A DNA stretch of 60,000 bases, from contig MU053881.1 in assembly GCA_013239625.1 (NCBI GenBank), positions 7,463,957-7,523,956 on the forward strand, in the 5' to 3' direction. The first letter of the stretch is position 1. Each line of letters opens with the position of its first letter. The notes under the pieces were generated by a model, which saw only the letters and a program-made list of their open reading frames with translations, was not told the origin of the DNA and made no database searches. Source of the DNA: Lama guanicoe (Eukaryota). The position numbers and the translations under genes were made by a program. Shown here piece after piece: positions 250 through 42,603 of this stretch.

Positions 250-1516
250 CATTTGTATTAGGTGGAGCTAGGGATCAAGATCAACTTTTCCCAATATGTT
301 ATGTAAATTGACTAAATGTTATTTTTCAAAAATTCTACCCTTCCCCCTGCATTTGTGATTCTTTTTAGTCACAAATCAGATGAGCAAATGTGTTTGTCTC
401 TGTTTATGGATTCTTTTTCTCGTCCTTTGAAATAGGTCTTTGTGTTTGCATTTGTATCACACTGAATTAATTATCATCTTTTAACAGGCCTCTATATCTG
501 TTAGTAAAAGTCCTCCATCTTTCTTCTTCTTCAAGATTTTCTTGGATATTTTTGGCTTTTTGCATTTCCACATACATTTTAAATCAACGCGTCATGTTCC
601 AAAAAAAAAAAAAAGCTTGCAAGGAGTTTTATTGAAATTGTGTTGAATCTTTAGAGCAATCTGAAGAGAAGTGATGTCTTTATTATGCTATATTCTGCCA
701 TTTATTTAGACCTTTATCTCCATGATGTTTTGAAGTTTGCAGTGTGACAGACGTCTTCTACATCTTTTTGTTGACTTTATCCCTAGGCATATGGTATAAT
801 TTATGCCATTATAAATAGTTGAATTTCAAATTTTTCACTTCTATTTGTTTTTACCTGGTATAAATTGGTTTTTAAAAATTGATTCAGTACTCAATTTTAC
901 TAGTTTATCTACAAAATGTTTTAGATTTTTCTACACATGCTGTAGTAGCATCTGCAAGTAATGACATTTAAAAACTTCTAACTTTAACATAATTTCAGAC
1001 TTACAAAAGTTTCAGTGTGTGTGTATATGCATGTGGATGTATGTTTTTGTGAATCACTTGAGAATAAAGTGCAGAACAAGACGCCCTTTTGCCTTGATAT
1101 ACATCACTGTGCATTTCTTAAAAATAAGGGCAGCACAATTATCAAATTCAGGAAAATAACACTGACAAAATACTATCAGCTAATCAAAGTTCTCATTCAA
1201 ATTTTGCCAGTTGTCCCCTTAATATTCTCTATGGCAAAAGAAAATTCCATGTGGCAAGCTGTATTCACTTGTTACATGTCTCTTTAGTTTCCTTTAATCA
1301 GGATCAATTCCTCCACTTATCTGCCATCCCTGATCTTGGCATTTTGAAGAGTACGGGCCAGATATTGAATAGAATACCCCTCATTAGGGTTTCAGAATGT
1401 TTCCTCATGATTAGATGCAAGGCATACTTTTTCTGGCAGGAATACCACATTCGTGACCTTATGTTTTCCTCACTGCTTTATATAAGAAGGCACATGCTAT
1501 AAATCTGTCTTCTTAC
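250..1516 (-). mobile_element. Old L1M fragments; the 3'-end piece resumes at about 6633-7120 after the ERV
   Basis: Antisense L1 ORF2-like and 3'UTR-like sequence; TCTTAC|TGGTGATGTTAACTTT continuity across the ERV. Confidence 0.6.
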
Positions 1517-2016
1517 TGTCATGGGTAAAACCCGCTGGAGTCCCTGGGAAAAATAAGATGGAATCTAGATAAGGGCTAATCTTAGTCTAGTTTCACTTGC
1601 CTACCAGGGGCAGTGTGCAGAGGCCTTGGACCGAACACATCGGTTTACAGTTCTCAGTGCAGAACCACTGTGCCCAACACTCCAACTTGGTGAGCCGTGC
1701 ACAGAGGCACTGAGAATGACAGCTCAAGCCAAGATAGTGCACCACGTGCAGAAATGCTACGCCCGGCACTTCAGTCTGACGTGAGCACCACGACTGTGCC
1801 CGACACACAAGAAGTTCCTCCCTCCCTCCACAATCAAGAACCGGCCAATGGCCTGTTGAGGAGAGTGTGTACCCTAGAGCTCACACCTCTCTATTCTTTG
1901 CTCACAAAACTGAACTTTCTTTTACTTCTAAACTGAACTTGGTCTCGTTCTATTGGTTCCAACGACACTAGGCAGGAGGATCCTTCATGGGGACCGACTC
2001 AGGAGGGTCGGTAACA
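1517..2016 (+). repeat. ERV 5' LTR (500 bp, CpG-depleted)
   Basis: Starts TGTCATGGGTAAAACCC and ends GGTAACA; alignable to 5884-6632 at both ends. Confidence 0.9.
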
Positions 2017-2021
2017 AGTTT

Positions 2022-2039
2022 TGGCACTGCAGGTGGGAT
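2022..2039 (+). promoter_or_regulatory. Primer-binding site, best recalled match tRNA-Arg(CCU)
   Basis: TGGCACTGCAGGTGGGAT 5 nt after the 5' LTR; about 15/18 to the complement of the tRNA-Arg 3' end as recalled (TGGCACCCCAGGTGGGAC). Confidence 0.65.
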
Positions 2040-2779
2040 GGACCATGACCTCTTCGCCTGTACCTGTCCACTAGGCTCCATTGGGAGGATGGCAGCCTTC
2101 GGCCGAATTCAGAGCAACTCTGCCCAAACCCGATACCCAGGTGTGGGGTGTGGTCTGTACACAGTGTAGCCCCCAGAGTCATCTGGACTGCACCTCGTTG
2201 ACAGGATCACACTGTGACATCGTTGGGGGTCGAGGACTGAAACTCATGCTTGTCTGCCCACTGCCTCTGGCTGGCCTGCCCACAGCACCGAACGCCAGGA
2301 CTGTGGGGACCTGTGGACGAGAGGGAGCCACGCCGTCTTGCCCACTGTCTCACCAGCAGTGCTGTCTTCTTGACCCCTGTAAAAGGCAGGAGAAGCTGTG
2401 CCAGGGCTTCCCTCCTCGACAACCTCTGGGCGTCAACAGTAGCACTCTCCACGTTCACTTTCATTTGGCAAAGGAAAGAGGCCAGCCCCACGAGCCAAGA
2501 GGCGAGACCAAGAGAAGGCCCAGGTAATAAGGACTGCCTGGCAACACAGAAACAGGATGCTCCATTGACCAGGGACGCCCAAGTGTGAAAGGGTCCCAAG
2601 GTAGGTACTCGACCTCCTCTGGTCAGCACTAATTTCTCTGAAGTGGGCTGGGGAGCCCTGTGAGCCGCTAGCAAGACCAGGAACCCCACCAGCAGGAAGT
2701 CCTGTGAGCTGCCGGCAAGAGCAGGAAACACACCACCCAATCTCTCCTCTGATCTCTTTTCCTTCTAATGCGGGAAAGC

Positions 2780-4410
2780 ACCAGAACAGGCATTCACAGA
2801 GCTGCTAGACAACCCAGTGGTTACTAGGAAAGCCTGTCACACTAGATCCTTCCCCCGTACTACCCACGGACACAGGGCTCTTGGAACATGACTGTATAGA
2901 AACAGTAGTCACAGTCTATTCCAGTCTTCCTGACCGACCTAGGAAGTGAGCCCCTCCCAGATGCAGAAAAGGACGGGAGTACTTTTATGAGGGAGAGAAA
3001 AAGGCTGGTGGGATATTTAGTAACTTCCCAGATACAAGTCACAGAAGCAAGGAGCCTACCCCTGGGACTTCTGCCCCAAAGGTGGAGCTGATAGCCCTCA
3101 CCGAGCCTTAGCGCTCAGGACGGGGAAGATCTTAAATGTTTACACAGATTGCCGGTAGATGTATGCCATCCTACATGCACACGGGGCTATTTGGAAGGAA
3201 AGAGGTATGCTTACTGCAGAGAATAAAAAGGTGAAATAAGACTTAAGCATATTGAAGCCCTTAGAAGCAGTATAGCTTCCAAAAAAAAAAAAAGTGGCAG
3301 TGATTCATTGTAGGCGTTACCAAAAGGGGGGTGCAGAGGTAATAAAGGGAAACAACAAGATGGACACAACAGCCAAAAGGGCAACCCTAGAACCAGTAAC
3401 TTGGCAACTTCCCCTCATGCCCCAAAGGCCAGATCCATTCAATTATTCCCCAAATTACACAAAGGACAAGTTAGACAAAGCCCGAAGATGGGGCTTCAAG
3501 AGACCTGGGAGGTCATGGGTGGCTAGATAATGCACATGAGCAATACATCTTTCCCCAGACTTCAGCTTGTCAAGCAATCAGAGAGACTCATCAAGGAACT
3601 CACTCCAGGAGGGAAACCCTACATAACTGGTTAGATGAGGTAATGGTAACTCCTGGCAAGAAAAGTATGATCAGTCAGATAGTTGAGATTTGCCCGGTCT
3701 GCTCAATGAACAATCTAACACCAGGTCCCCCAGAGGCCCCCAGATGAGGCCCACTCAGATCAGAGGGACTTATTCTAGAGAAGACTGGCAGTCTTCACTG
3801 TCATGCTGAGAGCGCCTGGCAATTTCATGTATCTCTTGGTGGTAGTAGACATATTTTCTGGGTGGATAGATGCAATCCCCACTTAAGCTGAAAAGCAGCT
3901 AAAGTGACTAAGGTGTTACTGACAGAAACAGTCCCCATGTTCGGGTTCCCAGGATACCTACAAAGGGATAATGGTCCAACATTTGTGTCTCAAATGACAA
4001 AGGGGATAACGAATGCCCTGGGCATAAAATGGACCTTGTACTCCACCTGGAGACCCCAGTCATCAGGGTAAGTAAAAGGACCCAATCAGACCTTGAAATA
4101 GGCCTTAGCCAATCTATGTCAGAAAACTCAGTAAAATTGGGGTAAGTTGCTTGCGATTTCCCCGCTCTGCACACAGTCAGCCCCAAGGGATAAGTTAAGT
4201 GCATTTGAAATCATGCTCTAGAGAAAGGGACACCTTAATTCTCTTACAAATGGAAATAACTCAAGTATGCCCTCCAGGTTGGAGACACCGGGAAAGCTCT
4301 CACGGAATATAGCAACCAGGTGCTGCCTGCATCCACGGACCTGGCCCCACACGCGTTTCAGCAAGAAGACTGGGCGTACTTAAAAACCTGGAGAACCAGC
4401 AGCCCACAAG
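2780..4410 (+). pseudogene. pol: ERV pol remnant: tether, RNase H and integrase, with frameshifts and stops
   Basis: Motifs HDC, DGS (2972), ELIAL, YTD, HAHGAIWKERG, VAVIHC, CPVC, YLLVVVDIFSGW, DNGPTF and PQSSG in shifting frames. Confidence 0.9.
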
Positions 4411-4549
4411 ACACCCTGGTAAGCACTGCCATTGTGCTGTCTCCCCCCTGACCCCAGCCCCTGCCCTCCAGGACACATTTACCCCAGTGCTTGCAAAACG
4501 AGGTCCCTATACTTCCAATTTATACTTCCCATCTAGGGAATTAAAATGT

Positions 4550-5720
4550 TCCTCACCACCATCACCCTGCGGTAAACATATTTCTTCTATAATGTAACCA
4601 GAGATATGCAGGAAGGATGGAACTTCACTGATTGTTGGATCTGTCATGCCCAACCTGAAACAGGAAGGGACCACCAGACATATTTAAGAGGAACTCCAAT
4701 AACTGAGGAGGAAGCACTAAATACCACCCTCCTTTCGGCAGGTGATAAACTGTAAACAAGCTGAAGTCCAGCTGGTCCCAGCTGTGACCAACAGCACCAA
4801 CAATACATGAAACAGGCTGTCCAACAAGGGAAAATACAGTTGAGTTTGATATCTGGGTGTCCCAACAGGACCCTAAATACACTCACAAGGAGAGAACATC
4901 AGAGCACTGACCCTTTGAGGGCTCTAGCCAATGGCACAGGGCAGATGTGCTTACAAAGAGGACACACGTTCTTGGGTAAACCCCCAAACACAACGAGGGG
5001 CTGGGCATCTCAATGCATAGAGAGCACCAAGGTGAGGGGCTATGTCACCATAAGAACTTGGGACAAGAAGCAAACTTAGAGATTACAATCGGACGGTTAC
5101 CCACAGGAAGAAGCCACGCCGCTCCAAAAGAGCCGCAGGACTATGAATCACAGGAGTCATTGCACTCATAGGGGTGCTAGTGATCCTGGCCGGGGGAGCG
5201 ATATACAACACTGTCACCATAGACAAGGTACAGCCACGGTGGCAACAATGGCCAGTGAGACTGGCCTCGACGTCAAACTATTAAAAAAAAAAAATTGACA
5301 TGTGAGGTAGGCCAAACCTTTAAACCTCGCACAAAAATCTGTTGACTCACTGGCCAGGAAGGTACTAGACAACCGAACTGCCCCAGATTATCTGTCAGCC
5401 GACCAGGGAAGGGGTCTGCGCACTGACCAATACATCATGTTGCTTTTACATCAGCGCAAGTAGCCTGATTGAAGAAAGTGCAGACGGGCTATTGGAAAAA
5501 GCAACTTGGCTAGCAGAAGCCAGCCAGCCTCATCTGGCAAAACAAATTCCGAGCGAGGTAAACAGGCTCTGCCCAGTCACTTGGTTTCTACCTTTCCCGG
5601 TCCCCTTAAAGACCATTACTCTCTTGCTAGTATTTGTGCCACGCGCCTTAAATTGGTGTCCTTTGTCTCCGAAAGATTATAATCTATAAAACTCCCAAAT
5701 GGTGGATGCACAGTCAGGAG
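4550..5720 (+). pseudogene. env: ERV env remnant (gamma-type SU/TM)
   Basis: DCWICH (~4630), furin site RRSKR (5117-5131), ISD-like DNRTAPDYLSA, CX6CC GVCALTNTSCCFYI (~5412-5452) and a hydrophobic TM segment; reading frame disrupted. Confidence 0.88.
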
Positions 5721-5883
5721 TTAGGCTGGTGACAATCAAACACATCTCAAGGTCGCTCGGGAGAACTTCTGCTCCTCTCAGAGGCTATGACGTCACCCAA
5801 ACTCAGCAGGAAGCACAGAAGACAGACGGTCACCCCTTAGCGCCCGGCAAGAATGAGGAGCAGGACGAAATATGAAAGGGATT

Positions 5884-6632
5884 TGTCACCGGCAAAGCCC
5901 ACTGGGGTCCCCAGGAAAAGTAAGATGGAATTGAGGTGATAAGGTCTACCCTATTCTTTAGGGCTTGGTCTAGTTTTACTTGCCTATAGTGGGCTGTGTG
6001 CGGAGTCCTTGCACCTGAAGGCCGAGTCGGAGTTTCCAGCGCAGAAGCGCTGTGCAGGACGCCGGGACCGGGCTTGGCGGGAGCCCCATGCAGAAGCCCT
6101 GTGCCCTGACACCCGGACCGGGCTGGGCGGGAGCCGCGTGCAGAAGCCCTGTGCACCGACGCCCGGACTGGGCTCGGCGAGCCGCGTGCAGAAGCCCTGT
6201 GCCGACGCCGGGACTGGGCTCGGCGGGAGCCCCATGCAGAAGCCCTGTGCCCTGACACCCGGACCGGGCTGGGCGGGAGCCGCGTGCAGAAGCCCTGTGC
6301 ACCGACGCCCGGGCTGGGCTCGGCGAGCCGCGTGCAGAAGCGCCGCGCACCCCTCCCCGAGTCAAGATGGCGGCGGCGCGCCCTGCCTCGCGCAGAGATG
6401 CTGCGGCCCGCGCGCACCGCTGTCTGGGGCGTCGTGAGCAGCGCGGCTGTGCCAGACGCAGGAACTCCGCCCCGCCCCCCGCAGAGGGGAGGCCCATGAA
6501 GCAGCCCCGCCCAGGGCCTTTCGGGAGAGCCTGTGCTCCTGACCTCCAGCTCTGAAGTTCCTTTGCTTCTGGCTCCAAGGACTCCAGGCAAAAGGGCCCT
6601 TGTTGGGGACTGACTTGGGAGCGTCGCTGACA
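5884..6632 (+). repeat. ERV 3' LTR (749 bp, CpG-rich, with internal minisatellite)
   Basis: Starts TGTCACCGGCAAAGCCC after GAAAGGGA and ends GCTGACA; homologous to the 5' LTR. Confidence 0.9.
6041..6345. repeat. GC-rich 48-50 bp minisatellite, 6 full units plus a partial
   Basis: Units start with GCAGAAG at 6041, 6090, 6140, 6188, 6236, 6286 and 6334. Confidence 0.95.
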
Positions 6633-7129
6633 TCACTGGTGATGTTAACTTTCATTTATCATTTGTTATTTATCATTCATTAGGGTGCTGTCTTAATTTT
6701 TTCATGTAGAGGTTACTAGTTTTTCCATGTAAAGGTTACTAGGTGTAATTATTACGTATTTGTGGAGAGATACTCTACGTAAATATTCTATAACTTATAC
6801 TTTTAGCCCACTGGTTCTAGCATCTATTGATTCTTTCCTGAATCACATGTTAAGTTACCAAAGATGTTTTAAATTCTATCAATCTTTCTTCATTTATTGA
6901 GATTCTACTATGAGAAAAAGCTTTGCCTTCATTATTTATTCATGCATGGATTTATTTATCTATTTCAAACAACATGGGCTCATGGTTTCTTATTTTACTC
7001 AATAGGCTATAATCCATTACTATTATTTATTTAGATGTTCAAATTGTCCAAGATTTGGACAGTGAGAGCCACTTCAAGCTGACTCCCATGTCATTTTGAC
7101 ACGTGCTCTTCCTTCTTTGAACATCTTGA

Positions 7130-7625
7130 TGAGGTATATTCCCTCTATAACTATACCCAGCTTTTTGAGTTTTTTTTTTTAATCATGAAAGGATGTTGAA
7201 TTTTGTCAAATGATTTTTCTGCATGTATCGAGATGATCATATAATTTTTATCCTTCAATTTGTAAGGTGGTATATCATGTTGACTGATTTGCAGATATTG
7301 AACCATACTTGCATCCCTGGAGTAAATCCCACTTAATCATTGTGTATGCTCCTTTTAATGTATTGAATTTGGTTTGCTAATATTTGTTGAGGATTTTTGC
7401 ACCTATGTTCATTAAGGATACTGGCCTGCCATTTTCATTTTTTATCAAATATACTTCCCCCCACCCCCTCCCCTTTCTGGGGATTCCTATTATGCACATG
7501 TTGCTGTGTTTGACAGTAGTGTCCAGTAGGTCTCTTAAGCTCTGTTCATTTTTCTTCATTCTTTTCTTTTTCTGTTCTTCAGTCTGAATAATCTCAATCG
7601 GCCAAATTTGTTGTTGCAAATTTTG
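7130..7625 (-). mobile_element. L1 fragments (ORF2 RT piece beside an ORF1 piece)
   Basis: Translations RPVSLMNIGAKILNK (ORF2) and KKNEQSLRDL...NMCIIGIP (ORF1). Confidence 0.8.
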
Positions 7626-8826: not shown

Positions 8827-9329
8827 TTTATTTGAAAAGTTTAGAATTGAAAATATATATTATATATGTGTGTGTATGTGTATATATACAAAAATTAGAT
8901 GTTCTAGGGAATTAAGAATCCCTAGAAAGTTTCTCTTATCTTCTTTTATTCCCTTTGATAACATCCTATCATCTATACAGAGTAAGAAAATAAAGGGGGG
9001 TAAATTATAGCAGTTTTATTTAAAATCTCAAAATTATTTTTTCATGTAATTGAGACATGAAATTTAAATCATGTATATGAACACAGAGATGAACATATGT
9101 GCTTTAAACACTGACAAAATCCAGTTATAATATATTTTTAAACCAAGTTTTCTATTTTTACAACACAGTGAAAAACTACGTTCATAAAAATGTATACTGG
9201 AAAATATAATAGTTAACGTGTTCTCTTTTCAAATATATGACTCTGACGGTAATGTGTTAATATCACTTTAAAAATCTATATACAAGGCAACAAATAGATT
9301 TATAATAATACTTGCCGTAGTAGTTTATT
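8827..9329 (-). terminator. SPDL1 polyadenylation signal cluster
   Basis: Minus-strand AATAAA at 9324-9329, 9015-9020, 8945-8950 and 8827-8832, all downstream of the stop codon. Confidence 0.6.
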
Positions 9330-9553: not shown

Positions 9554-9701
9554 TTACTGCTGAGGGCACTGGGTCTCTGGAGTTGATTTGGAAGACACGT
9601 ACAGAATAGGGTGTGATTTCTTACAGGTTTCTTTTTCCAATTTGCTTGTAGTTTCACTCCCTTCTTTAACTTCTGTTTGAAGCCTTGATTCAGCAGCTAA
9701 C
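9554..9701 (-). CDS. SPDL1: Spindly terminal coding exon 12 (LAAESRLQTEVKE...TPETQCPQQ*), farnesylation CAAX
   Basis: CTGTAG| acceptor, TAA at 9556-9554; CPQQ is the established Spindly farnesylation motif. Confidence 0.97.
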
Positions 9702-11941
9702 CTACAGGCATTAAAGCATCCACTCTGAATTCAAATGTGGTTAAGAAAAACTAAAGAAACAATCCTCTAGGATAATGGTCCTGTTGACGACACATGGTGA
9801 GTTTTTTCTTAGGTAACAAGGAAAATAATTACAGTTGACTCCAATACCATTAAAAAAACTAAGACACTGCCTCACCAAAAGAACCTTTTTATATCAATAG
9901 ACTTTAATTTTTTCAAATGTCAAAAGAAGTATCTTTAAGGTTGATGAACAGTCATGGAAAAGCCTAAATTAAAGAAAGTACACTGAGGGTGCCTTTTGTG
10001 ATAAGCACACCTAACAAAAAAATTTGAATGCTAGAGAACTGTTTTAATGTTAACATGACATACAAAAGGCAAATGCGGATAAAATTTAACAAAGAATCCT
10101 GGGCTGCATGAATAGATGTCTATTTGTCTCATAAAAAGAACTCAAATTGATTTTCAACTAGCAAAATAATAACAAGAAAAAATGAACAGTGAAGAGATAG
10201 TTTAAAGAGCCTATAAAAATGTTTTATAGCAAAAGCATAAATTAAGTTTATAAAGCATGCAATAGTGAAGTCCCAATAAAACCCGTATTTATTATTACAA
10301 TATTATCATGAGATTGTGTGTCTAAATTAATCATGCAGAGAGCAAAAGGTTGGAAAGTTAGCAGATGGACTCACACACACACAAAAACAAACATTTTGTG
10401 GTATTTTATTTGTTTTTGTTATCTAGCAAGACAAAAAAATTCCAATGTGCTACTTGAGTTAAACAAGTAGCTAAATACATTTAGTTGAGTAATTTTTATC
10501 AAGGAAAAAAACGGCAGAAAAAGAGATGAAGACAACACAGATAGCAAAGTTCGCACTGATCAATTCTGGAAATCCACCTCCAGAAATATACAATGGTCAA
10601 GCACACTTACACAATGGGTCACATATATACAAGCAAAACCTGCTGAATTCAATTCAGAACTATTTGAAAAGTGTGTGTGTGTGTGTGTAAGAGACAGAGA
10701 GAAGGAGAGAAAGATATTATTCATTTAAAGTTACTTTTTTCCTTGAGAATGTCAAGCTTTTACTTTATGTGACTTATAGGTTATAATGTTATATACAAAA
10801 ATTCAAGGGATGGAAAAATAATTGACTTCTGTTAATAACAGCTGTTAACATTGTTGAATACTACATTTAGTACCACTGAAGACTTGAAAAGAAATCACAT
10901 AAAACACACGAGAAAGCCCTTTTACATAAGGTGATTATGTCTTACTATTTCAATTAAAATGAAATAGTAGTAAAATGTCTTATTCTGTACCCTGCCATCT
11001 AAGACTGATGTAGCACCTTGAACATCTCCTTTCGTAGCAGACAATATAAGCTAACTATTTTCACATCAATATGCTTAATTTTTTCCATGTCTACTTATTT
11101 TAATTACATCTGTCATTCTGTTGCATAAAGATATCCTTCATCTTTTTTGTACCTTCTCCATTTTCCTCATTCACTTCTTTTTTGCTCACTCTTGGTCCTG
11201 CTATACACATCAAGAACTTGTTTCTAATTCCAACCTAACCTCAGCCACTGGACCTACTTTTCCCTTCCACTCACTTTCTCTTACCTTCTGGCCTCTATTA
11301 TTTTAATTTTTAAGGGATAAGGCCCTTATAACATTAATTCTTACAGACATACAGTCTGACACTTCCTCTTTCAGTCACAAACTTAAATATGCAGAAAACT
11401 AGAGGCTTTGAAGTTTGGGTATAAATGGAAAATGAATTACCTTTGATATTTAAAAATGTCAAAATAGATACTAAATCCCATTCTTGAAGGCTTAGGATAA
11501 ACAATTTCAAAGCCATAAAAAAAATCACACCTAACAAGTTTTCTGGAAGGCTGAAATTTCTTAGATTAATGTAAAGCCCTTTTAGGAGCTACGTTAACTT
11601 TCCTCTCAAGGCCCCTCCTGAACCAGGAAAAAAATAACGGTACATTTAATTCAAACCAACAAAACATTCAGAGATATTATAGACTGTGGTATTTCTGCCT
11701 CATGACACAGAAAAGTGTTCCTTTTAAAAATAATTCCCTTATTCAGGCATCCTTTCCCCTTGCAGTCATTTTAGTCTTTCTTAAAGTTTTAGAAAATCGG
11801 AAGGTAGGCATATGAAATTGGGGAATTATACTGCATGCAATACTGAGAAAATAGATACAGAAACAGATAGCACAGTTCATGCAGCGATAGAGAAGAGATG
11901 GAGAGGTCTGCTCGTTGCCTGGGAGGAAAGAGGACACTGAC

Positions 11942-12281
11942 CTGGGAGAGTTCGGGGTGTTTCCACTTCTTTCACTTAAGATTTCCAAGTCAGCTGGAAC
12001 TTCTATAAGTTTCACACATTTCTTTTCCTTCCTTGGCTGAATATCCACAGGCAGATTCTTGTGAGGAGAGAGAATGACTCCTGCTGTGTTTACAGAAACT
12101 GTCTTTTCTAACTGCAAGTTGTTATCTTCTAAATTGCTAGGACAGGAGTGTGCCTCCTCCTTCTGAGGTGGTAATCTATAAACTTCTCCAGTGGCACTGT
12201 TGGCACACGCATCGGTAGGGGTGGCTGTATCTACAGGCAGTACCTCACGCCTCTTTTTGAGTACAGGCACTTCAATTTTCT
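11942..12281 (-). CDS. SPDL1: Spindly exon 11 (KIEVPVLKKRREVLP...NTPNSP)
   Basis: TTCTCAG| acceptor, CAG|GTCAGT donor, 340 nt. Confidence 0.94.
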
Positions 12282-29182: not shown

Positions 29183-29460
29183 CAGCGCTGTTGTCCAATA
29201 GAAACGCAATGCGAGCAAGATGTGATTTTTAAAATTTTCTAGGAGCCACATTTTTTTAAAAAACAGTAAATATTGGTGAATTTGACTGTTTAACCCAACA
29301 TATCCAAAATATCATCATTTCAACATGCACTCATTATAAAGATCATTAACGAGATCACTTTTTGGTGTGACTTCAAAATCCAGTGTATATTTTACATTCA
29401 CAGCGTTTCTCTATTCGGAAGGCCACAGGTGACCACTGGCTACGGTACAGGACAGCGCAG
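29183..29460. mobile_element. MER33-like hAT-Charlie DNA transposon next to the promoter
   Basis: CAGCGCTG..TCCAATAGAAA start and GGACAGCGCAG end. Confidence 0.65.
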
Positions 29461-30230
29461 ACCCAGCGTCCGGTATCTCCCGGAGGCCAAGGCAGCGGAC
29501 CCGGCTTTCTGTATTAATGCACCCTCCGCGGGGGTGTCCGGGCGGCCCACTGGATGACTGAGACCGGCTCGGAAGCTGGTTTATCGGAACCGAGTTCTGC
29601 TGAAGAAGCGGCTCCAGCTAAAAGCCCGGGCGGAGACTCAGAGCCCCAGTTCCCTTAGGCCCTGCTCTCCCCACCCTAGAAGTCCCCCCTACGCAGCTCC
29701 CCAGCGCCCCTCTTCCCACACGCACCTCCCTCCAGGCCCCTTGCCCTGACCTCTCTCCTTACCCTTTGCCCTGCCGCTGCAGCTCAGGAACCCAGGTCCG
29801 TGACGCTCACTCTGCCGCACAACACAGACGCCGGCCGCTGGCTCTCCGGTAAGCGCCAGGGCTGTTTGAATGCAGTTCCCGCGATAACTCGCATATCTCG
29901 CGAGACGTTCCGCCCAAGCGGAGCGCAGAGGGAAATCCCGTGCCACGCCCCATCTGCAGCGTCTGCGCAGGTGCAAGCGGAGAGAATCGGGCTTGGCGCA
30001 GATGTAGACGTGGTTCTCTGTCTCTTCAGCGTTACTCAGGGTTGGTTTTTCTGGGTGTTTTTTTTGGTTTTATTTCTTGGTTTGTCTTTGTTTTGTTTGT
30101 TTTGTTTTCTCCTAACGACCGTGCATTTTTGAGGAACAGTGTCACTAGGAGGTGAGGCGGTGGAGAGTTCCACGCGTGCTGGCCTAGCCGCGCATCGGCC
30201 GCTGTGCGTCCTGAAGGCTCTGCCCTGCGG
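29450..30230 (-). promoter_or_regulatory. SPDL1 CpG-island promoter
   Basis: High CpG density; TTTGAA (CHR) at 29865-29870, TTCCCGCG (E2F-like) at 29876-29883, TCTCGCGAGA (BANP palindrome) at 29896-29905, NRF1-like TGCGCAGGTGCA at 29964-29975. Confidence 0.85.
29763..29880 (-). other. SPDL1: Probable non-coding exon 1 (5' UTR); TSS approximate
   Basis: Lies in the CpG-rich region, ends at a strong donor AAGG|GTAAGG (GT at 29762-29761) and contains no ATG. Confidence 0.6.
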
Positions 30231-33090
30231 TGCCAGTCTTACGGTTCCAGGAGTTTAACTCAGTGTTGCAGTGCCCAAAAGCATCATAGACAGAATCACA
30301 GTTTCTTTCATAGTACAGAGTGACAGTTACTGTAATGGCCTTACATACTCGAGCCTTCACCATGTGCCGGTACAGTTTTAAATTTTACACGGATTGTCTC
30401 ACTTAAACTCGCCGACAGTCTTAGGAAGTAGGTATTACTATCTTTTTCTACAGAGGAAAACAGCCCTGAGAAGAAAAATACCTTGGCCGCATGGTAGAAG
30501 TAGAATTTGAACTAACGCAGTCGGCTGCTAAAGTCCAAGCACTTGCGTGTGTGTTTAAATAATTTATATTTTGTAAACCTAATGCCTATTCGTTAAGCAA
30601 ACAGAAATCATAATAGGCAACATTTGGTGGGCACTTATGAGTTCTAACAACTATTCTGTGGATCATGTTGTGCCAGCCCATCTTTTCTTGCCTACTTGAG
30701 GACTTGGCCATAGGTCCTCTCTTTTTCATTATGTTTTTTCTTCCCAGTTGGACTTTCCCTATCGACAAATAAACATTCTGTAATGACTTCCATCTCAGAA
30801 AATAATACTAACTTCCCTTGACCCCAGTCAGCTACCACCTTATTTATTTGCTTCCCTTGATAACAAAATTGCTGGGGGAGAAAAAGTTAAGACTTGGTAT
30901 CTTAATTTTCTTACTTTTTATTCTAACTTTTCCCCCCACTTCAGGTTTTGGTCCCAAAACTCCAGTGGAATGACTCTTCTCAACATCACCAGTGAGTTAT
31001 ATCTTGCAAAATCTTATTCAGTCCTCATTTCTCTCAACAATTGACAGAGTTGATTGCTCTCATTGAGTCTCCTTAGGTCTTGGGATGCCACACTCTCCCT
31101 CCTTTTCTCAAATCCCTTTGCAGACTTCTATTTCTGACTGAGCAAGGCAACGGATTGATGTGGGCTTGAAGACTGGCAACGATGATGTCTTCACGTTGCT
31201 CACAGTGTAGCCTGGTAGATGCTTTTGGGGCCTGGCTGAACAAATGCTCATTCGTCATCACTTCTTGAATAAATGAAATCCCATTTTCCTATCATTTAAT
31301 AAAGATTCCTTAATTCAGGAGTCAGGAAGACATTCTAGCTTAGACCAATCATGACTGGCTGAAATTAGGTAATCTATAAAGTATATGAACTTCATTTTTC
31401 TCATTTGTTAACATAAGAAAGTAGACCTCCACTTCAGTAATGTTTCTTTCAAATCTAATATTTTTAAAAAATATTTTAAACTGTTGGCTGAGTGTCCACA
31501 ATGTGCTAGGCATAGTGGAAGGAATTCAGAGATGTAATTGTCACTCCTCTCTGGAAGATGCTCACAATATAGTAGGGGATTAAATAAAAACAAATAAAAA
31601 TAACCACAGAGCTGTATATAAATATTTTGTGAATGGTGTATACCCTACACTAAAGGAGTTATGTGATGGGAGGGGTCAGTTTTGTCTTGGTGTTCTTTTA
31701 ACATTTCATAGTCCAGGTGGCACTTGAGCAGGGCCTTTAAGGATGGTTAAGCTAAGGAGGAGTATATTCAAAGGAAGGGGATAGCATTAGCAAAATCCAC
31801 ATCAAAATTGAAGTCAGTCATTAGGAATTGTCTGGATAGGCTGCTGCCTGTACCACCACTGGACACTAGATGTCACAAGAGAAATGAATTCTAGATGCTC
31901 CCTGCTTGTTCGGATAACTTGTTTAAGATTCACAATTCCAGATGCAGATCTGCATACCAGATGAGGTCCACATACCATGAGCTAAATGCCAAGGGTCAGG
32001 GTGAAAAAAATGCATCCCTCGTTTTCAGTTTACATAATAAGAGATGGGATTTTGCCTCCTCACACAGATTGATCAAGTGGATTCATCAAGCATAGGAAAG
32101 GAATTTAGATGTTGGGAATATAATTCCTAATGTTACTGCTATAATATTACTTCTAATAATAATAATAATAATAGCATTTCTGATTATATAATTCCTAATA
32201 CAATTCCTAGTATTGCAGCTGTTCAAAACTGGGATAGACTGCTGTGGTAAACTGGCCATCATTCCTTCACTATGACTATTCTAGTGGAAATGAAAGGACT
32301 GGTTTTCAAAAATGGTGTAGAAGGGAGTGTTGCACTGTACTGAAAGCAGTGTGTATTTTGACATGAACTTACTGAATGATTAAGTTTGTTTTGGTACCAC
32401 AATAGTCTCTGTCCTCAGGGAACTTAGAATTTAGTGGAAGGGGTATTTATCAAACAATAAACTGTTACTCAGAGTATGGCTTATTCTTTCTTACTCCTTC
32501 ATATTATTAAGAAAACTCCAAGCTAGTCTTTTTAGGGTCAAGGAAGAACAAGCCCAGGATTCTGAGACATGGAGTTTGCAAATAAGATCTGGATTAATTT
32601 ACAAAGTTCCATGATTCATAGGATGGACCAGGATATGAAGTTTTGGAAGTTACACTCAGGGTTGTGGTAATTAAAACCTGGAGCATGTCTGAGACCTGGT
32701 GAATCAAGAAGGCGGCTTAGAGAGCCTGAACGCACTAATTAACCTGCCAACTTCCCATTCCACATTTAGGAGTTGATGAGGCTAAAACTGTAAGTTGCTA
32801 ACTTCCAGAGATAGGATCCCATGATGGCTCTTTTGAGAAAAATGTCTTGATTGTACTAAAAGGAAGGTGTATCTTAAATGAAGGGGCCTATGTATATTGG
32901 AGAAAAATAAGGATTCAAACAGCTTGTGTGTAATCCTTTCTTGGCACCACTTCACATTACCATTACACCCCTGTTAAGCTTGCTTCTTCAGATGATTCTA
33001 GCACCTAAGCCAGTTAGAAGTAAGACGCAGTGTTTATATCAGTTATGGTTTTTACTTGCCAAGAATAGTACCCACTCAAGTTGGTTCTAG

Positions 33091-37240: not shown

Positions 37241-39804
37241 TTGGTAGGAAAGCATGGCTTATTCTTGGGAAAATTAGCAGCTGAATTTGGGGAGAATTCC
37301 ATCCTTTTAATCTTCAGGGTTTATGGCCTTTTAGCTCTTATCCCCTCTAGCTGCATAAGTGGTAGATAAAAAGGCTTGAGCAATTTGGGAATTAAAAACC
37401 ACTTAAAATTCCCCAGTGAGCCAAGAAGACCCACATTGCCCTTTTACTTAGAGTGTCATTGGGTGACCAGTAGGGACAGGAGTATAGGAGAGGTGTGGCG
37501 TTATCCTGCAAGAAGGTAGAATATGGAAAGAGGTGAAGACCTGGATCTTGGGTGTATACTTTGGTTGCAGGAATCCTGGTTCTGCACGCTCAAAAGGATT
37601 GCCATTTTGAGCCTTTTCTATGATTTTGAAGTACTTCAGACTTGCTTTAAAAAAAATTTTTTTTGCAAGTTATTTCTTTCTAATCTATCTGAATATCAGC
37701 TGCTTGCAGCTTTGGCTGGACTTGAGATAGTTTCCAGGTGAAACTGTTCTCATAGCTTACTGAGTCTGAACTAATGGAAACTTCGGAAGTCCCTGGCAAT
37801 CCTGTAAGAACCCCCTAATGTCAAGAGGCTTCCCAAGCAGTTTGGATGTCTTTCAGCTTCATCCTCTAGGACTGTTCACCACTAGCTGATTCCTGAAATT
37901 TCCTTCCTCCCCACCGTCCCAAATAGGCCTTGAAGTGTAAATAAAAGTCATGGGCAAGTGTATTTCTTGGCCAGTAGCAGACTCTGTACAAAGTAAAAAG
38001 AAGTGAGATTCCATGATAATTCCCATAAAGCAGGTGTTACAATGACTTTACCAAACTTGAGCCTGACATTTTGATGAACAACTCTTGAGTGCCCCTCATA
38101 ATTTCCTCCGTGGAGGAGATAGGCCAATAGGTAGTATGTCAAATCTCCCTTTGTCTGTCCACGTTTACTAATGGAAGGAGGTGAAACAGGTGAAACACAT
38201 TAACTTTTAACCTGTTAACAATGATTGTTTTTTCCGCTAAGCATTAGATTAGTTTAAAAGGGAAATACATGCTGGCAGAGAGGAGACAAAGAGTGATAAA
38301 GAGTGATAGTGATAGGAGGGGGCTGAAAGCTGGCCTGCATCATGGAACATATTTGCAAGCCAGCTGGGCCCACTTTGCGCAGACGTTTTTATAGGAACGA
38401 GAGGGAGGGGCACATGTTCTAACGTTAGATACATTAGCACAGCACAGCACTGGAATATTTCTTTGCATGATGCCCCTTTCTCGTGGCTGGAGGTAGGGGT
38501 ATAGGGTGAGGTTCAGAGGCATCAGGGTAATTTTATTGTTCAAACTGAATTCAAGTATATTTCATACATTGATGATAAGGCTTTTTTCCAAGTTCATTTT
38601 AAAGGGGTTAATTTACATTTTATGATGCTAAGTCAGAAAACCAAAGAGATACACGTTTATACGCCTATGGATAAAACAATCTAATCATCTTCAGCATTTT
38701 ATTCATAGGTGAGAAAATGTGTAGTTGTTTGGAGGAAATATTTCCAAAATGGATCCCCTTGGGTTTAAATGTTGAGCTTCTTTTAGGGCAACGTAGATGA
38801 AGCCCCTCTTCCCCAGATGGTTGGCTTGGTCTTCCACTTTTTGCCTGAACATGTCAGTAGCACATCTGTGCAGCATGCATTCCAGAAAATGGAGGGAGTC
38901 GATTTTTCTCTGCAAGTTGGAGGTTTGCAAATTGGTGGCCCACAGTTGTGCTATTTGGCCTACACAGTACAGGGGGGGAAAACAAAAAGAAACTTTGAGC
39001 CAAAATTCTATACTCGGAAATTTGCACCACACACACTCACACACGTACGTCTGGATTGTCAGCTTCCTATGAAAAATCGGAAGATTTGGCTATGCTATGC
39101 TCACATTCCTCTTGCCAGCAATCTGGTAGATCTTTGTATTTTTCTGGGCATAACATTTTCCAGTTCACCACAGTCCTGTCTCTCTACCATTGGGTTTATT
39201 CATTCAGTTAAATGAGTCAGATATAAGGAGACATGTATATTACCTATTTGTGTGATTCCTATATGCATTTGAGTTTTCCATCCATGATATGAGGAAAGCC
39301 TACGTTGTTGCTCGTGTCCTCGAAGCTGATTCTGTTCTTCTTTTTTGTACAAGTGGAGTTCTTAATATTGTTATAGATGATCTAATACTTTGCTTGAGAA
39401 AAGAACCTGACTATATTGTAGCTCTAAAAAGATTATTTTTAGGTTAGAAAGATTAAAGGATCATTTATTCCTTTCCTATTTCAGTTTAGTCTACTTAAAA
39501 GTGTGAATGAATTTCTAACAGAATAACTCTTAAGTTGATTCTCTTCTTTGGCTGTGTTTTCATTAATGGAGAATTGAAGTGATCATTTAGATGAACTCAT
39601 CTATAAATGGAAAACAGAAACTAGTAATTTGAATATACAGATTTTACTGTACAGGTAAAATCTAGCAAAGAAATGCTCAGCTGTTGACTCTACTCATGTA
39701 GAGTCAGAAAAGTTTAACACAAGAAGGGACTTCAGGGATAAAATTTGACTCCTTCATTTTACAGATTAAAAACTGAATTTGAGAGAGGTAAAGCAACCTA
39801 TTCT

Positions 39805-42603
39805 GTCCAGTTTTCCCAGCACCACTTATTGAAGAGACTATCTTTTCTGTATTGTATATTCTTGCCTTCTTTTTTGTAGATTAATAGACCATAAGTATAT
39901 GGGTTCATTTCTGGGATTTCTATCCTGTTCCATTGTGTCTGTTTTGTGGCAATACCATACTGTTTTGATTGTTGTAGCTTTGTAGTATAGTCTGAAGTCA
40001 GGGAGCATGATTCCTCCAGCTCCATTCTTCTTTCTCAAGATTGTTTTGGCTATTTGGGGTCTTTTGTGTTTCCATACAAATTAAAAAATATTTTGTTCTA
40101 GTTCTAAGAAAAATGTTACTGGTAATTTGATAAGGATTGAAATGAATCTGTAGATTGCCTTGGGTAGTATGGTTATTTTGACAATATTGATTCTTCCCAT
40201 CAAAGAACACAGACACAGTATATCTTTCCATCTATTTGTGTCATCCTCAGTTTCTTTCATCAGGGTCTTATAGTTTATGGAGTACAGGTCTTTTGCCTCT
40301 TTAGGTAGATTTATTCCTAGGTATTTTATTCTTTTTGATGTGATGGTAAATGGGATTATTTCCTTAATTTCTCTTTCTGCTATTTCATTGTTAGTGTATA
40401 GAAATGCAACAGATTTCTGTATATTACTTTTGTATCCTGCAATTTTACAACAATTAATTGATGAGCTGTAGTAATTTTCTGGTGGTGTCTTTAGGATTTT
40501 TTATGTGTAATATCATGTCATTTGCAAACAGTGACAGTTTTATGTCTTTTCCTATTTGGATTCCTTTTATTTCTTTTTCTTCTCTGATTTCTGTGGCTAG
40601 GAATTCCAAAACTATGTTGAATAAAAATGATGACCGTAGGCATTCTTGTTCATGGTCTTAGAGGAGATGCTTTCAGCTTTTCACCATTAAGAATGATGTT
40701 AGCTGTGGGTTTGTCATATATGGCCTTTATTATGTTGAGGTATGTTCATTGTATGCCCACTTTCTAAAGAGTTTTTATCATAAATGGATGCTGAATTTTA
40801 TTAAAAGCTTTTTTTTACATTTATTGAGATGACCATATGATTTTTATTCTTCAATTTGTTAATGTGGTATATCACATTGATTGATTTGTGGATATTGAAA
40901 TATCCTTACATCCTTGGAATAAGTCCACCTTAATCATTGTGTATGATCCTTTTAATGTATTGTTGGAATCCATTTGCTAGATTTTGTTGAGGATTTTTGC
41001 ATCTATGTTCATAAGTGATATTGGCCCGTAATTTTCTTTTTTTGGTGATATTTTTGTCTGGTTTTGGTATCAGGGTGATGGTGGCCTCAGAATTAGTTTG
41101 GAAGTGTTCTTTCCTCTGCAATTTTTTGGAATAGTTTCAGAAGGATTAAGTGTTAACTCTTCTCTAAATGTTTGGTAGAATTCACATGTGAAGTCATCTG
41201 TTCCTAGACTTTTGTTTGCTGGGATTTTTAAAATTACTGATTCAATTTCAGTACTGGTAACTGGCCTATTCATATTTCCTATTTCTTCCTGTTTCAGTCT
41301 TAGAAGTTTGTATCTTTCTAAGAATTTGTCCATTTCTTCTAGGTTGTATATTTTATTGGTGTATAGTTGCTTGTAGTAGGCTCTTATGATCCTTTGTATC
41401 TCTGTGGTGGTGGTTGTAACTTCTCCTTTTTTATTTCTGATTTTATTGATTTGGGCCCTCCCTTTTTTCTTGATGAATCTGGCTAAAGGTTTATCAATTT
41501 TGTTTGTCTTTTCAAAGAACCAGCTCTTAGTTTCATTGATCTTTTCTATTGTACTTTTGATTTCTCCATCAAAGTTGAACAAGAGCCTTGCTGGGTAGAG
41601 TATTCTTGCTTGTAGGTATTCCTCCTTCATCACTCTAAGTATATTGTACTACTCCTTTCTGGCTTTCAGAGTTTCTGCTGAAAAGTCAGCTGATAGCCTT
41701 ATGAGTGTTCCCTTATATGTTATTTGTTGCTTTTCCCTTATTGCTTTTAATATTCTCTCTTTATCTTTAATTTTTATTGTCTTGATTATAACGTGTCTTG
41801 GGTGTGTTCCTCTTTGGGTTAATCCTGTATGGGAGTCACTGTGCTTCCTAGACTTGGGTAACTGTTTCCTTTCCCAGGTTGGGGAAGTTTTCAGCTATTA
41901 TCTCTTCAAATATTTTCTCAGGCCCTTTCTCTCTGTCTTCTCCTTCTGGGTTCCCTATAATGTGAATATTAGTGCACTTGAAGTTGTCCCAGAGGTCTCT
42001 TAAACTGTCTTCATTTCTTTTCATTCTTTTTTTCTTTTTCTGTTTGGTGGCAGAGATTTCCAGTACTCTAACGAGTTTTCTGATTAATTTTTCTGCCTCA
42101 TTTAGTCTGCTGTTGATTCTGTTGAGTGTATTTTTCATTTCAGTTATTGTGTTCTTCAATTCTGTTTGTTTGTTCTTTATATTTTCTAATTATTTGTTTG
42201 AAACTTCTGACTTCTCACTTTGTATGTTCATTCTCCTCCTAAGTTCTGGGATCATCTTTATGATCATTACTCTGAACTCTTTCTCAGGTAGATTGCCTAT
42301 CTCTGTGTCACTTAGTTATTCTTCTGGGATCTTTATCTTGTTCCTTCATCTGAAACATATTCCTCTGTCACCTCATTTTGTCTCAATTACTATTTGTATT
42401 TTTATGTTTGTGGTAGCTTAGTTACATTTCTTGACCTTGGAGAGGTGGCTGTCTGTGGGAGATGTCCTATGCATCCCAGCAGTGCACTCCTCTCTTGTCA
42501 CAGAAGGGCCAGGGCCAGCTGGTCCCAAATAGTGTCTGGCCTGTGCTTGTGGACTTGGTATGCAGGCTGCAGGACTGTAGTTTTCCTGGTCTTCCCCCTG
42601 GTC
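39805..42603 (-). mobile_element. L1 with 5' region, ORF1 and partial ORF2; internally deleted and 3'-truncated
   Basis: ORF1 peptides (MKNTLNRINSRL, EKIFEEIIAENFPNL) and ORF2 peptides ([34 protein letters not shown]); flanked by 16-bp near-identical repeats. Confidence 0.92.

Follow-up and report, generated by a model that had tools for sequence, protein, structure and literature searches.

In the 60,000-nucleotide window of Lama guanicoe DNA analysed here (GenBank assembly GCA_013239625.1, contig MU053881.1), the 3' LTR of an old provirus is far richer in GC and CpG than its 5' twin. The two LTRs derive from one insertion, their GC and CpG asymmetry includes non-CpG sites, and the 3' LTR carries a tandem amplification and is bordered by a CpG shore within the provirus. 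The asymmetric, GC- and CpG-rich 3' LTR is a real feature that shows known processes at work, and the asymmetry most likely came about through recombination-driven GC bias rather than proven promoter use. Our preferred reading, to which we assign a probability of roughly 45%, is that germline hypomethylation and GC-biased gene conversion (gBGC) combined at the 3' LTR core. No published description of the locus was found in the open literature searched. As twin LTRs start out identical, the pair offers a natural control on the retention and growth of a CpG island within neutral DNA, and, compared across two or three orthologues, the locus could separate the effects of hypomethylation, gBGC, and selection and indicate whether a promoter follows as a by-product. 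It also warns against taking a perfect YY1 motif as evidence of exaptation when the motif lies in a CpG-rich LTR.

Provirus anatomy and comparison of the LTRs

The provirus spans positions 1517-6632 on the + strand and is an old, decayed class I element (Table 1). Both LTRs run from TG to CA, are colinear, and are accompanied by a short target-site duplication, which is the anatomy of a single insertion. The stretch directly 3' of the 5' LTR is one that we take to be primer-binding-site-like, given the usual retroviral layout. The integrase remnants matched two Pfam families with scores short of the curated cut-offs, Integrase_H2C2 (E = 3e-4) and rve (E = 1.6e-3), as well as integrases in the PDB (E = 6e-5); the env transmembrane (TM) remnant was nearest to Syncytin-2 (E = 9.8e-5), with further matches to Syncytin-1 (E = 0.27) and Pfam TLV_coat (E = 0.06). 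The element was therefore assigned to class I, and the order of integrase remnant followed by gamma-type env TM remnant is that expected of a class I (ERV1) provirus. No gag, protease, or RT remnants were recognised in the open reading frame (ORF) list from 2017 to about 2900, none of 84 candidates in a homology search with the env remnant was a match, and Rfam returned no matches across 1450-6900.

The long leader (2017-2950) runs almost straight into the pol 3' part, an arrangement that would fit an element that is deleted or non-autonomous, and A-runs of about 12-13 bases at 3283-3293 and 5281-5294, within the pol and env remnants, are probably slippage expansions. The flanks of the provirus presumably belong to one continuous old L1-type repeat, and a long - strand remnant at 39800-42600, which over 275 bp shows 80% likeness to the piece at 7177-7443, is likewise taken to be L1 on the strength of its likeness. 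Non-CpG K2P between the LTRs was 0.25 before the tandem array and 0.30 after it. A phylogenetic rate near 2e-9 per year would make the provirus about 60 My old. At 5e-9 per year, the rate implied by the available text of PMC8605555, the insertion age is about 25 My.

Table 1. Positions of the provirus, its LTR features, and neighbouring host features in the window
Feature	Position	Strand	Details
Left target-site duplication TTAC	1513..1516	+	3/4 bases match right copy
5' LTR	1517..2016	+	TG...CA; single copy of the array unit (1659-1700), decayed homologue of the YY1 site (1730), CCAAT (1845)
Primer-binding-site-like stretch	2022..2039	+	begins TGG, directly 3' of 5' LTR; from sequence and position
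Integrase remnants, broken	3475..4068	+	differing frames; Pfam, PDB, ORF list
CpG shore, env TM / 3' untranslated part	5001..5883	.	o/e 0.54 at GC 0.49, no GC rise
Env transmembrane remnant, class I (gamma-type) kind	5369..5686	+	Syncytin-2, Syncytin-1, Pfam TLV_coat matches
3' LTR	5884..6632	+	TG...CA, 749 bp
CpG-island core	6020..6520	.	501 bp, GC 0.75, 61 CpG, o/e 0.86
Minisatellite, ~49-bp unit x 6.2	6041..6341	+	arranged ABC-ABC
Exact YY1 12-mer CAAGATGGCGGC	6363..6374	+	homologous to 5' LTR site at 1730
Double GC box CCGCCCCGCCC	6467..6477	+	aligned to CCTCCC repeats of 5' LTR
GC box CCCCGCCC	6505..6512	+	at position of 5' LTR CCAAT
Right target-site duplication TCAC	6633..6636	+	4-bp duplication, one mismatch
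SPDL1 last coding exon	9554..9712	-	host gene, convergent on LTR; poly(A) words at 8945, 9015
SPDL1 own 5' CpG island	29440..30420	.	comparison; 981 bp, GC 0.57, o/e 0.81

A preliminary description of this DNA called the two LTRs alignable yet very different, and they aligned over 447 columns at 74% identity, with a GC content of 0.51 in the 5' LTR (500 bp, 15 CpG, o/e 0.46) vs 0.68 in the 3' LTR (66 CpG, o/e 0.76, counted on 5884-6631). The local alignment of the segment after the array scored 153 vs 28 ± 5 in 200 shuffles; the LTRs are truly homologous and come from one insertion. The same description termed the 5' LTR CpG-poor, which is correct relative to the 3' LTR but not relative to the genome, where host DNA has an o/e of about 0.20, and the 3' LTR densely CpG-rich, which fits its core but not its ends, whose o/e values of 0.38 and 0.24 are ordinary. 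The 5' stretch homologous to the core, at 1659-1860, has a GC content of 0.56 and an o/e of 0.51. Indels of 9, 11, 12, 21, and 25 nt separate the LTRs, and the 3' copy is without 46 nt of the R-like region that in the 5' copy holds its only poly(A)-like word; neither AATAAA nor ATTAAA occurs in the 3' LTR. A second AAGATGG word lies near the start of both LTRs (1555, 5922), inside an 11-base stretch that is identical in the two copies.

Island core, substitution asymmetry, and simulated histories

Under a sequence definition of at least 500 bp, GC of at least 0.55, and CpG o/e of at least 0.65, the stretch at 6020-6520 is a CpG island. More than half of the CpGs of the 3' LTR (37/66) fall in the tandem array at 6041-6341, which the preliminary description did not mention. 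Its higher-order repeat measures 146 bp, with a 96% match and 91 bp exact, and its units A-C are 81-85% alike; the 5' LTR carries a single copy of the unit. When the 3' LTR was reduced to one array unit, 504 bp remained with a GC content of 0.65 and an o/e of 0.74, and 6286-6520 on its own had values of 0.76 and 0.91; the array doubled the island and did not create it. By hand count, 5 of 12 unit-to-unit differences were of the CpG/TpG type, against an expected share of 0.23-0.27 (p = 0.11-0.19), which may lean slightly towards methylation. The array showed no folding excess indicative of a hairpin (z = 0.37), and neither LTR contained a canonical G3 quadruplex, only weaker G2-type runs and two G-rich patches on the - strand.

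Upstream of the island, CpG o/e was 0.54 in 5001-5883 vs 0.22 in 2901-5000 (binomial p = 0.001, scan-corrected p = 0.016), and none of 56 host windows of comparable size reached 0.53. Raised CpG without a GC rise fits reduced deamination, and this shore of about 0.9 kb looks like its product; an original viral feature could also explain it.

Differences between the LTRs were counted unpolarised, and we infer their direction. Among the CpGs 3' of the array, 5 were common to both LTRs, 8 faced TG/CA in the 5' LTR, 7 (of the 20 in this part of the 3' LTR) faced neither CG nor TG/CA, and 3 occurred in the 5' LTR only; of the core CpGs of the 5' LTR, 5/6 were kept in the 3' LTR and 1/6 was missing. 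At non-CpG sites after the array, A or T in the 5' LTR faced G or C in the 3' LTR 29 times, vs 7 times for the reverse. Away from gaps, the ratio was 25:6 (p = 0.0009) in four of five scoring schemes and 37:10 in the fifth, and for non-CpG transversions alone it was 6:0 (p = 0.03); before the array it was 13:10, a contrast between core and end that is suggestive only (Fisher p = 0.06-0.08). Counted over all sites in bins of 50 columns, the bias ran 7:3, 2:5, 8:3, 14:2, 9:2, 8:0, 9:0, 6:1, and 4:4, a bell shape that peaks at the array, where identity reaches its minimum (0.64), and fades towards both LTR ends. The GC and CpG asymmetry is thus not CpG decay alone; it extends to non-CpG sites. 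Paralogous LTRs gave 0 matches in viral contigs and 0 in a first metagenome scan, and in a second metagenome scan 0/107 matches extended past the search pattern when aligned to either LTR; an integrase scan of viral contigs for a control provirus confirmed 0/26 candidates.

The simulations took random ancestors as starting points and let LTR pairs evolve at neutral rates assumed for mammals. For the segment after the array, 125 of 12,500 runs were accepted, the largest share being unmethylated gBGC (62), followed by methylated gBGC (42), constraint (17), and absence of methylation only (4). When core and ends were considered jointly, 240 of 24,000 runs were accepted, again mostly unmethylated gBGC (120), with 53 for methylated gBGC, 36 for a constrained core, 28 for a short branch of the whole LTR, and 3 for absence of methylation only; the gBGC models together held 173/240 and the short-branch models 64/240, but all models under-predicted S/S differences and these shares are a guide, not probabilities. 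Symmetric neutral decay was ruled out (0/125 and 0/240).

If escape from germline methylation were the only departure from neutrality, it would explain why the core and the env shore retained CpGs, but it predicts symmetric non-CpG differences (23:22 simulated vs 29:7 observed). The observed gap was attained in 0 of 1121 composition-matched runs, and the simulations rejected plain escape at 4/125 and 3/240 accepted; we regard it as very improbable. The preliminary description had proposed escape from methylation and/or GC-biased conversion, which is supported with the weight on GC-biased change, given the 25:6 and 6:0 ratios and the few accepted runs of escape by itself. It also stated that the 3' LTR had become a CpG-island-like candidate promoter, where 'had become' is overstated: the best runs of every model began from a GC- and CpG-rich core (GC 0.66-0.72, o/e 0.73-0.85), and a homologue of the YY1 site survives, decayed, in the 5' LTR. 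Inheritance is the probable origin of both this site and the GC-rich core, and the island was probably kept and amplified rather than newly made.

Under hypomethylation combined with gBGC, a class I provirus would have inserted with two identical LTRs, their U3 core already rich in GC and CpG and equipped with a YY1 site, after which the 5' LTR would have decayed AT-ward in the usual way. The observed asymmetry indicates that the 3' LTR core entered a different substitution regime, the presumed causes being germline hypomethylation, which would have slowed CpG loss in the core, and repeated meiotic recombination at an open, promoter-like patch, through which gBGC would have held or raised G+C at non-CpG sites. 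The CpG-rich unit of about 49 bp was amplified to 6.2 copies, the last step being the recent 146-bp duplication seen in the array, which doubled the island. The outcome would be an intergenic CpG island that may yield by-product transcripts.

The same sequence could in principle belong to a methylated, silent island in which recombination-driven GC bias and minisatellite amplification keep replacing lost CpGs. BGC islands are a described class, according to the available portions of PMC4121359 and PMC4417305; the methylated gBGC model accounts for the 53/240 and 42/125 accepted simulations given above, the CpG/TpG-type differences among array units point the same way, and the 37/66 CpGs that are array copies would be too young for decay. 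We nevertheless consider it rather unlikely, as CpG is raised in the env shore while GC is not, and the core retains five of the six CpGs still present in the 5' LTR.

The core of the 3' LTR, or the whole LTR, could have been overwritten if an LTR of another subfamily, younger or richer in GC, had served as donor in non-allelic gene conversion. This would fit the short-branch model of the whole LTR (28/240) and the several mid-size indels between the LTRs, LTR subfamilies being known to differ by such indels. A burst of LTR-element activity took place in Vicugna pacos 1-4 Mya, and short ERV1 elements form large clusters there, by the account in the available text of PMC8605555, so a donor is possible. 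Replacement seems improbable to us, however, in that a single insertion accounts for both junctions and for the 4-bp duplication, only one colinear copy with no nested LTR ends is present, the ends of the 3' LTR look old by their CpG o/e, it contains neither poly(A) hexamer, and the bias tapers off gradually and shows no abrupt tract boundary. Hypomethylation with gBGC remains our preferred reading.

Motifs and the promoter question

The motifs quoted in the preliminary description were all located where it had placed them: CAAGATAGTGC at 1730, CCTCCCTCCCTCC at 1817, CAAGATGGCGGC at 6363, CCGCCCCGCCC at 6467, and CCCCGCCC at 6505, so that its perfect YY1 consensus and its GC boxes are indeed there. 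The exact YY1 12-mer arose in 0/2000 dinucleotide shuffles and its 9-mer core in 0.3%; the 12-mer is the consensus used in PMC13017510, in the text available. A 62-codon frame opened by the ATG of the 12-mer had no homologue. Only one CpG-type transition, one other transition, and an adjacent indel separate the YY1 sites of the two LTRs, and the site was therefore probably inherited. Two matches to CCCCGCCC were unusual in shuffles (P = 0.005-0.008), and the CCGCCC hexamer count was not significant against shuffles (P = 0.07-0.08). The CCAAT word of the 5' LTR faces two A/T-to-G/C transversions in the 3' LTR (6512, 6514), and the CCTCCC repeats of the 5' LTR are unlike a deaminated GC box, which would be expected to read CTGCCC or CCACCC.

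The preliminary description suggested an exapted, lineage-specific promoter. Such exaptation under selection, in which constraint would have held the core near its original state, would place the YY1 site just downstream of a start site near 6330-6360 and send + strand RNA towards the SPDL1 3' end, or fire bidirectionally. The exactness of the YY1 12-mer is in its favour, as are the 36/240 accepted runs of the constrained-core model, and the 46 nt with the only poly(A)-like word are gone, so a transcript could enter the flank. The orientation of the site is also the one in which, by the available text of PMC13017510, YY1 activates from just downstream of a start site, but the GC boxes are found 100-140 bp downstream of it, at a distance at which that same text reports SP1 sites to repress. 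YY1 sites are known as enhancer or silencer elements of LTRs as well, and in LTRs YY1 can also recruit silencing, as set out in the portions available of PMC10968565. Conservation is no higher in the core than in the ends (non-CpG K2P 0.25 before the array vs 0.30 after it), and since the twin LTR contains a homologue of the YY1 site, selection is not needed for the site to arise. No consensus splice donor occurs on the + strand in 6041-6900, and SPDL1, which is oriented towards the LTR, has a 5' island of its own. Bearing on coding models only, an exact look-up in a protein collection found 0/5 LTR frames and two homology searches were blank: for the antisense 273-codon frame, 0/6932 candidates matched among lengths of 150-478, and for the sense 99-codon frame there were 0 matches in 1.84 billion representatives. 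On this balance, we doubt that the LTR is a promoter maintained by selection. Among 18 sequencing runs listed, 12 contain part of 5884-6900: four of unknown kind, all from one study, share 0.78-0.87 of 99 words with it, and eight RNA or possibly-RNA runs share 0.04-0.12, the remaining six being raw-read sets outside the index; these shares speak neither for nor against expression.

A GC-type splice-donor-like word, TAG|GCAAGT, lies at 5976-5989 on the - strand, where an antisense transcript from the island could use it, and a similar word occurs in the 5' LTR. As the preliminary description had it, the 3' LTR lies about 2.3 kb from the SPDL1 3' end, judging by the poly(A) words of that gene. 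The peptide of the SPDL1 exon at 11941-12279 is identical to Vicugna pacos at 113/113 residues and to Camelus at 111/113. In the SPDL1 isoform X1 records (620 aa), the penultimate exon reads into the intron (11746-11940, - strand) and the last exon is skipped; the read-on frame is intact here and matches V. pacos at 179/179. The next gene away from SPDL1 is presumably DOCK2, going by synteny with human.

Recombination and promoter activity might also have reinforced one another. An inherited YY1/GC-box core would keep the LTR open in the germline, this openness would attract PRDM9-independent recombination, and gBGC together with minisatellite amplification would turn a viral promoter of the TATA/CCAAT type into a TATA-less one with YY1 downstream, driving a camelid RNA that converges on the SPDL1 3' end or runs the opposite way towards the next gene. 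This sequence of events we hold to be unlikely.

Comparison with known systems

GC-rich minisatellites are found near recombination hotspots in human, MS32 and CEB1 among them. The guanaco array resembles these in its GC-rich unit of tens of bases, its interspersed variant units, and its higher-order duplication; unlike them, it has 6.2 copies only, lacks a canonical G3 quadruplex motif, and shows no folding excess (z = 0.37). With LTR promoters and enhancers that carry YY1 and Sp1 sites, HERV-K LTR5Hs for one, as presented in the available parts of PMC10968565 and PMC7778262, the 3' LTR shares YY1 and GC-box motifs in the U3 part, but those are characterised by measured binding and activity, with YY1 activating or silencing, whereas the present element is known by its motifs, in an LTR whose divergence from its twin is about 26%.

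In 39 of 52 mammals, gBGC arises at hypomethylated hotspots of PRDM9-independent recombination, including species with an intact PRDM9, and camel, alpaca, and Vicugna go unmentioned in the main text of that source as available (PMC11161765). Unlike those hotspots, this locus is known from unpolarised sequence comparison; like them, it shows a local bias from weak to strong bases at its non-CpG sites, with the centre at a CpG-rich patch that resembles a promoter. Further parallels are the hypodeaminated and BGC classes of CpG island of Cohen et al., as described in the available portions of PMC4121359 and PMC4417305, in which, as in our reading, an island results from a substitution regime of reduced deamination and/or GC-biased conversion and selection is not needed. 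The guanaco island differs from those classes in that over half of its CpGs come from tandem amplification and in that it occupies one LTR of a provirus, where the twin LTR serves as a built-in control.
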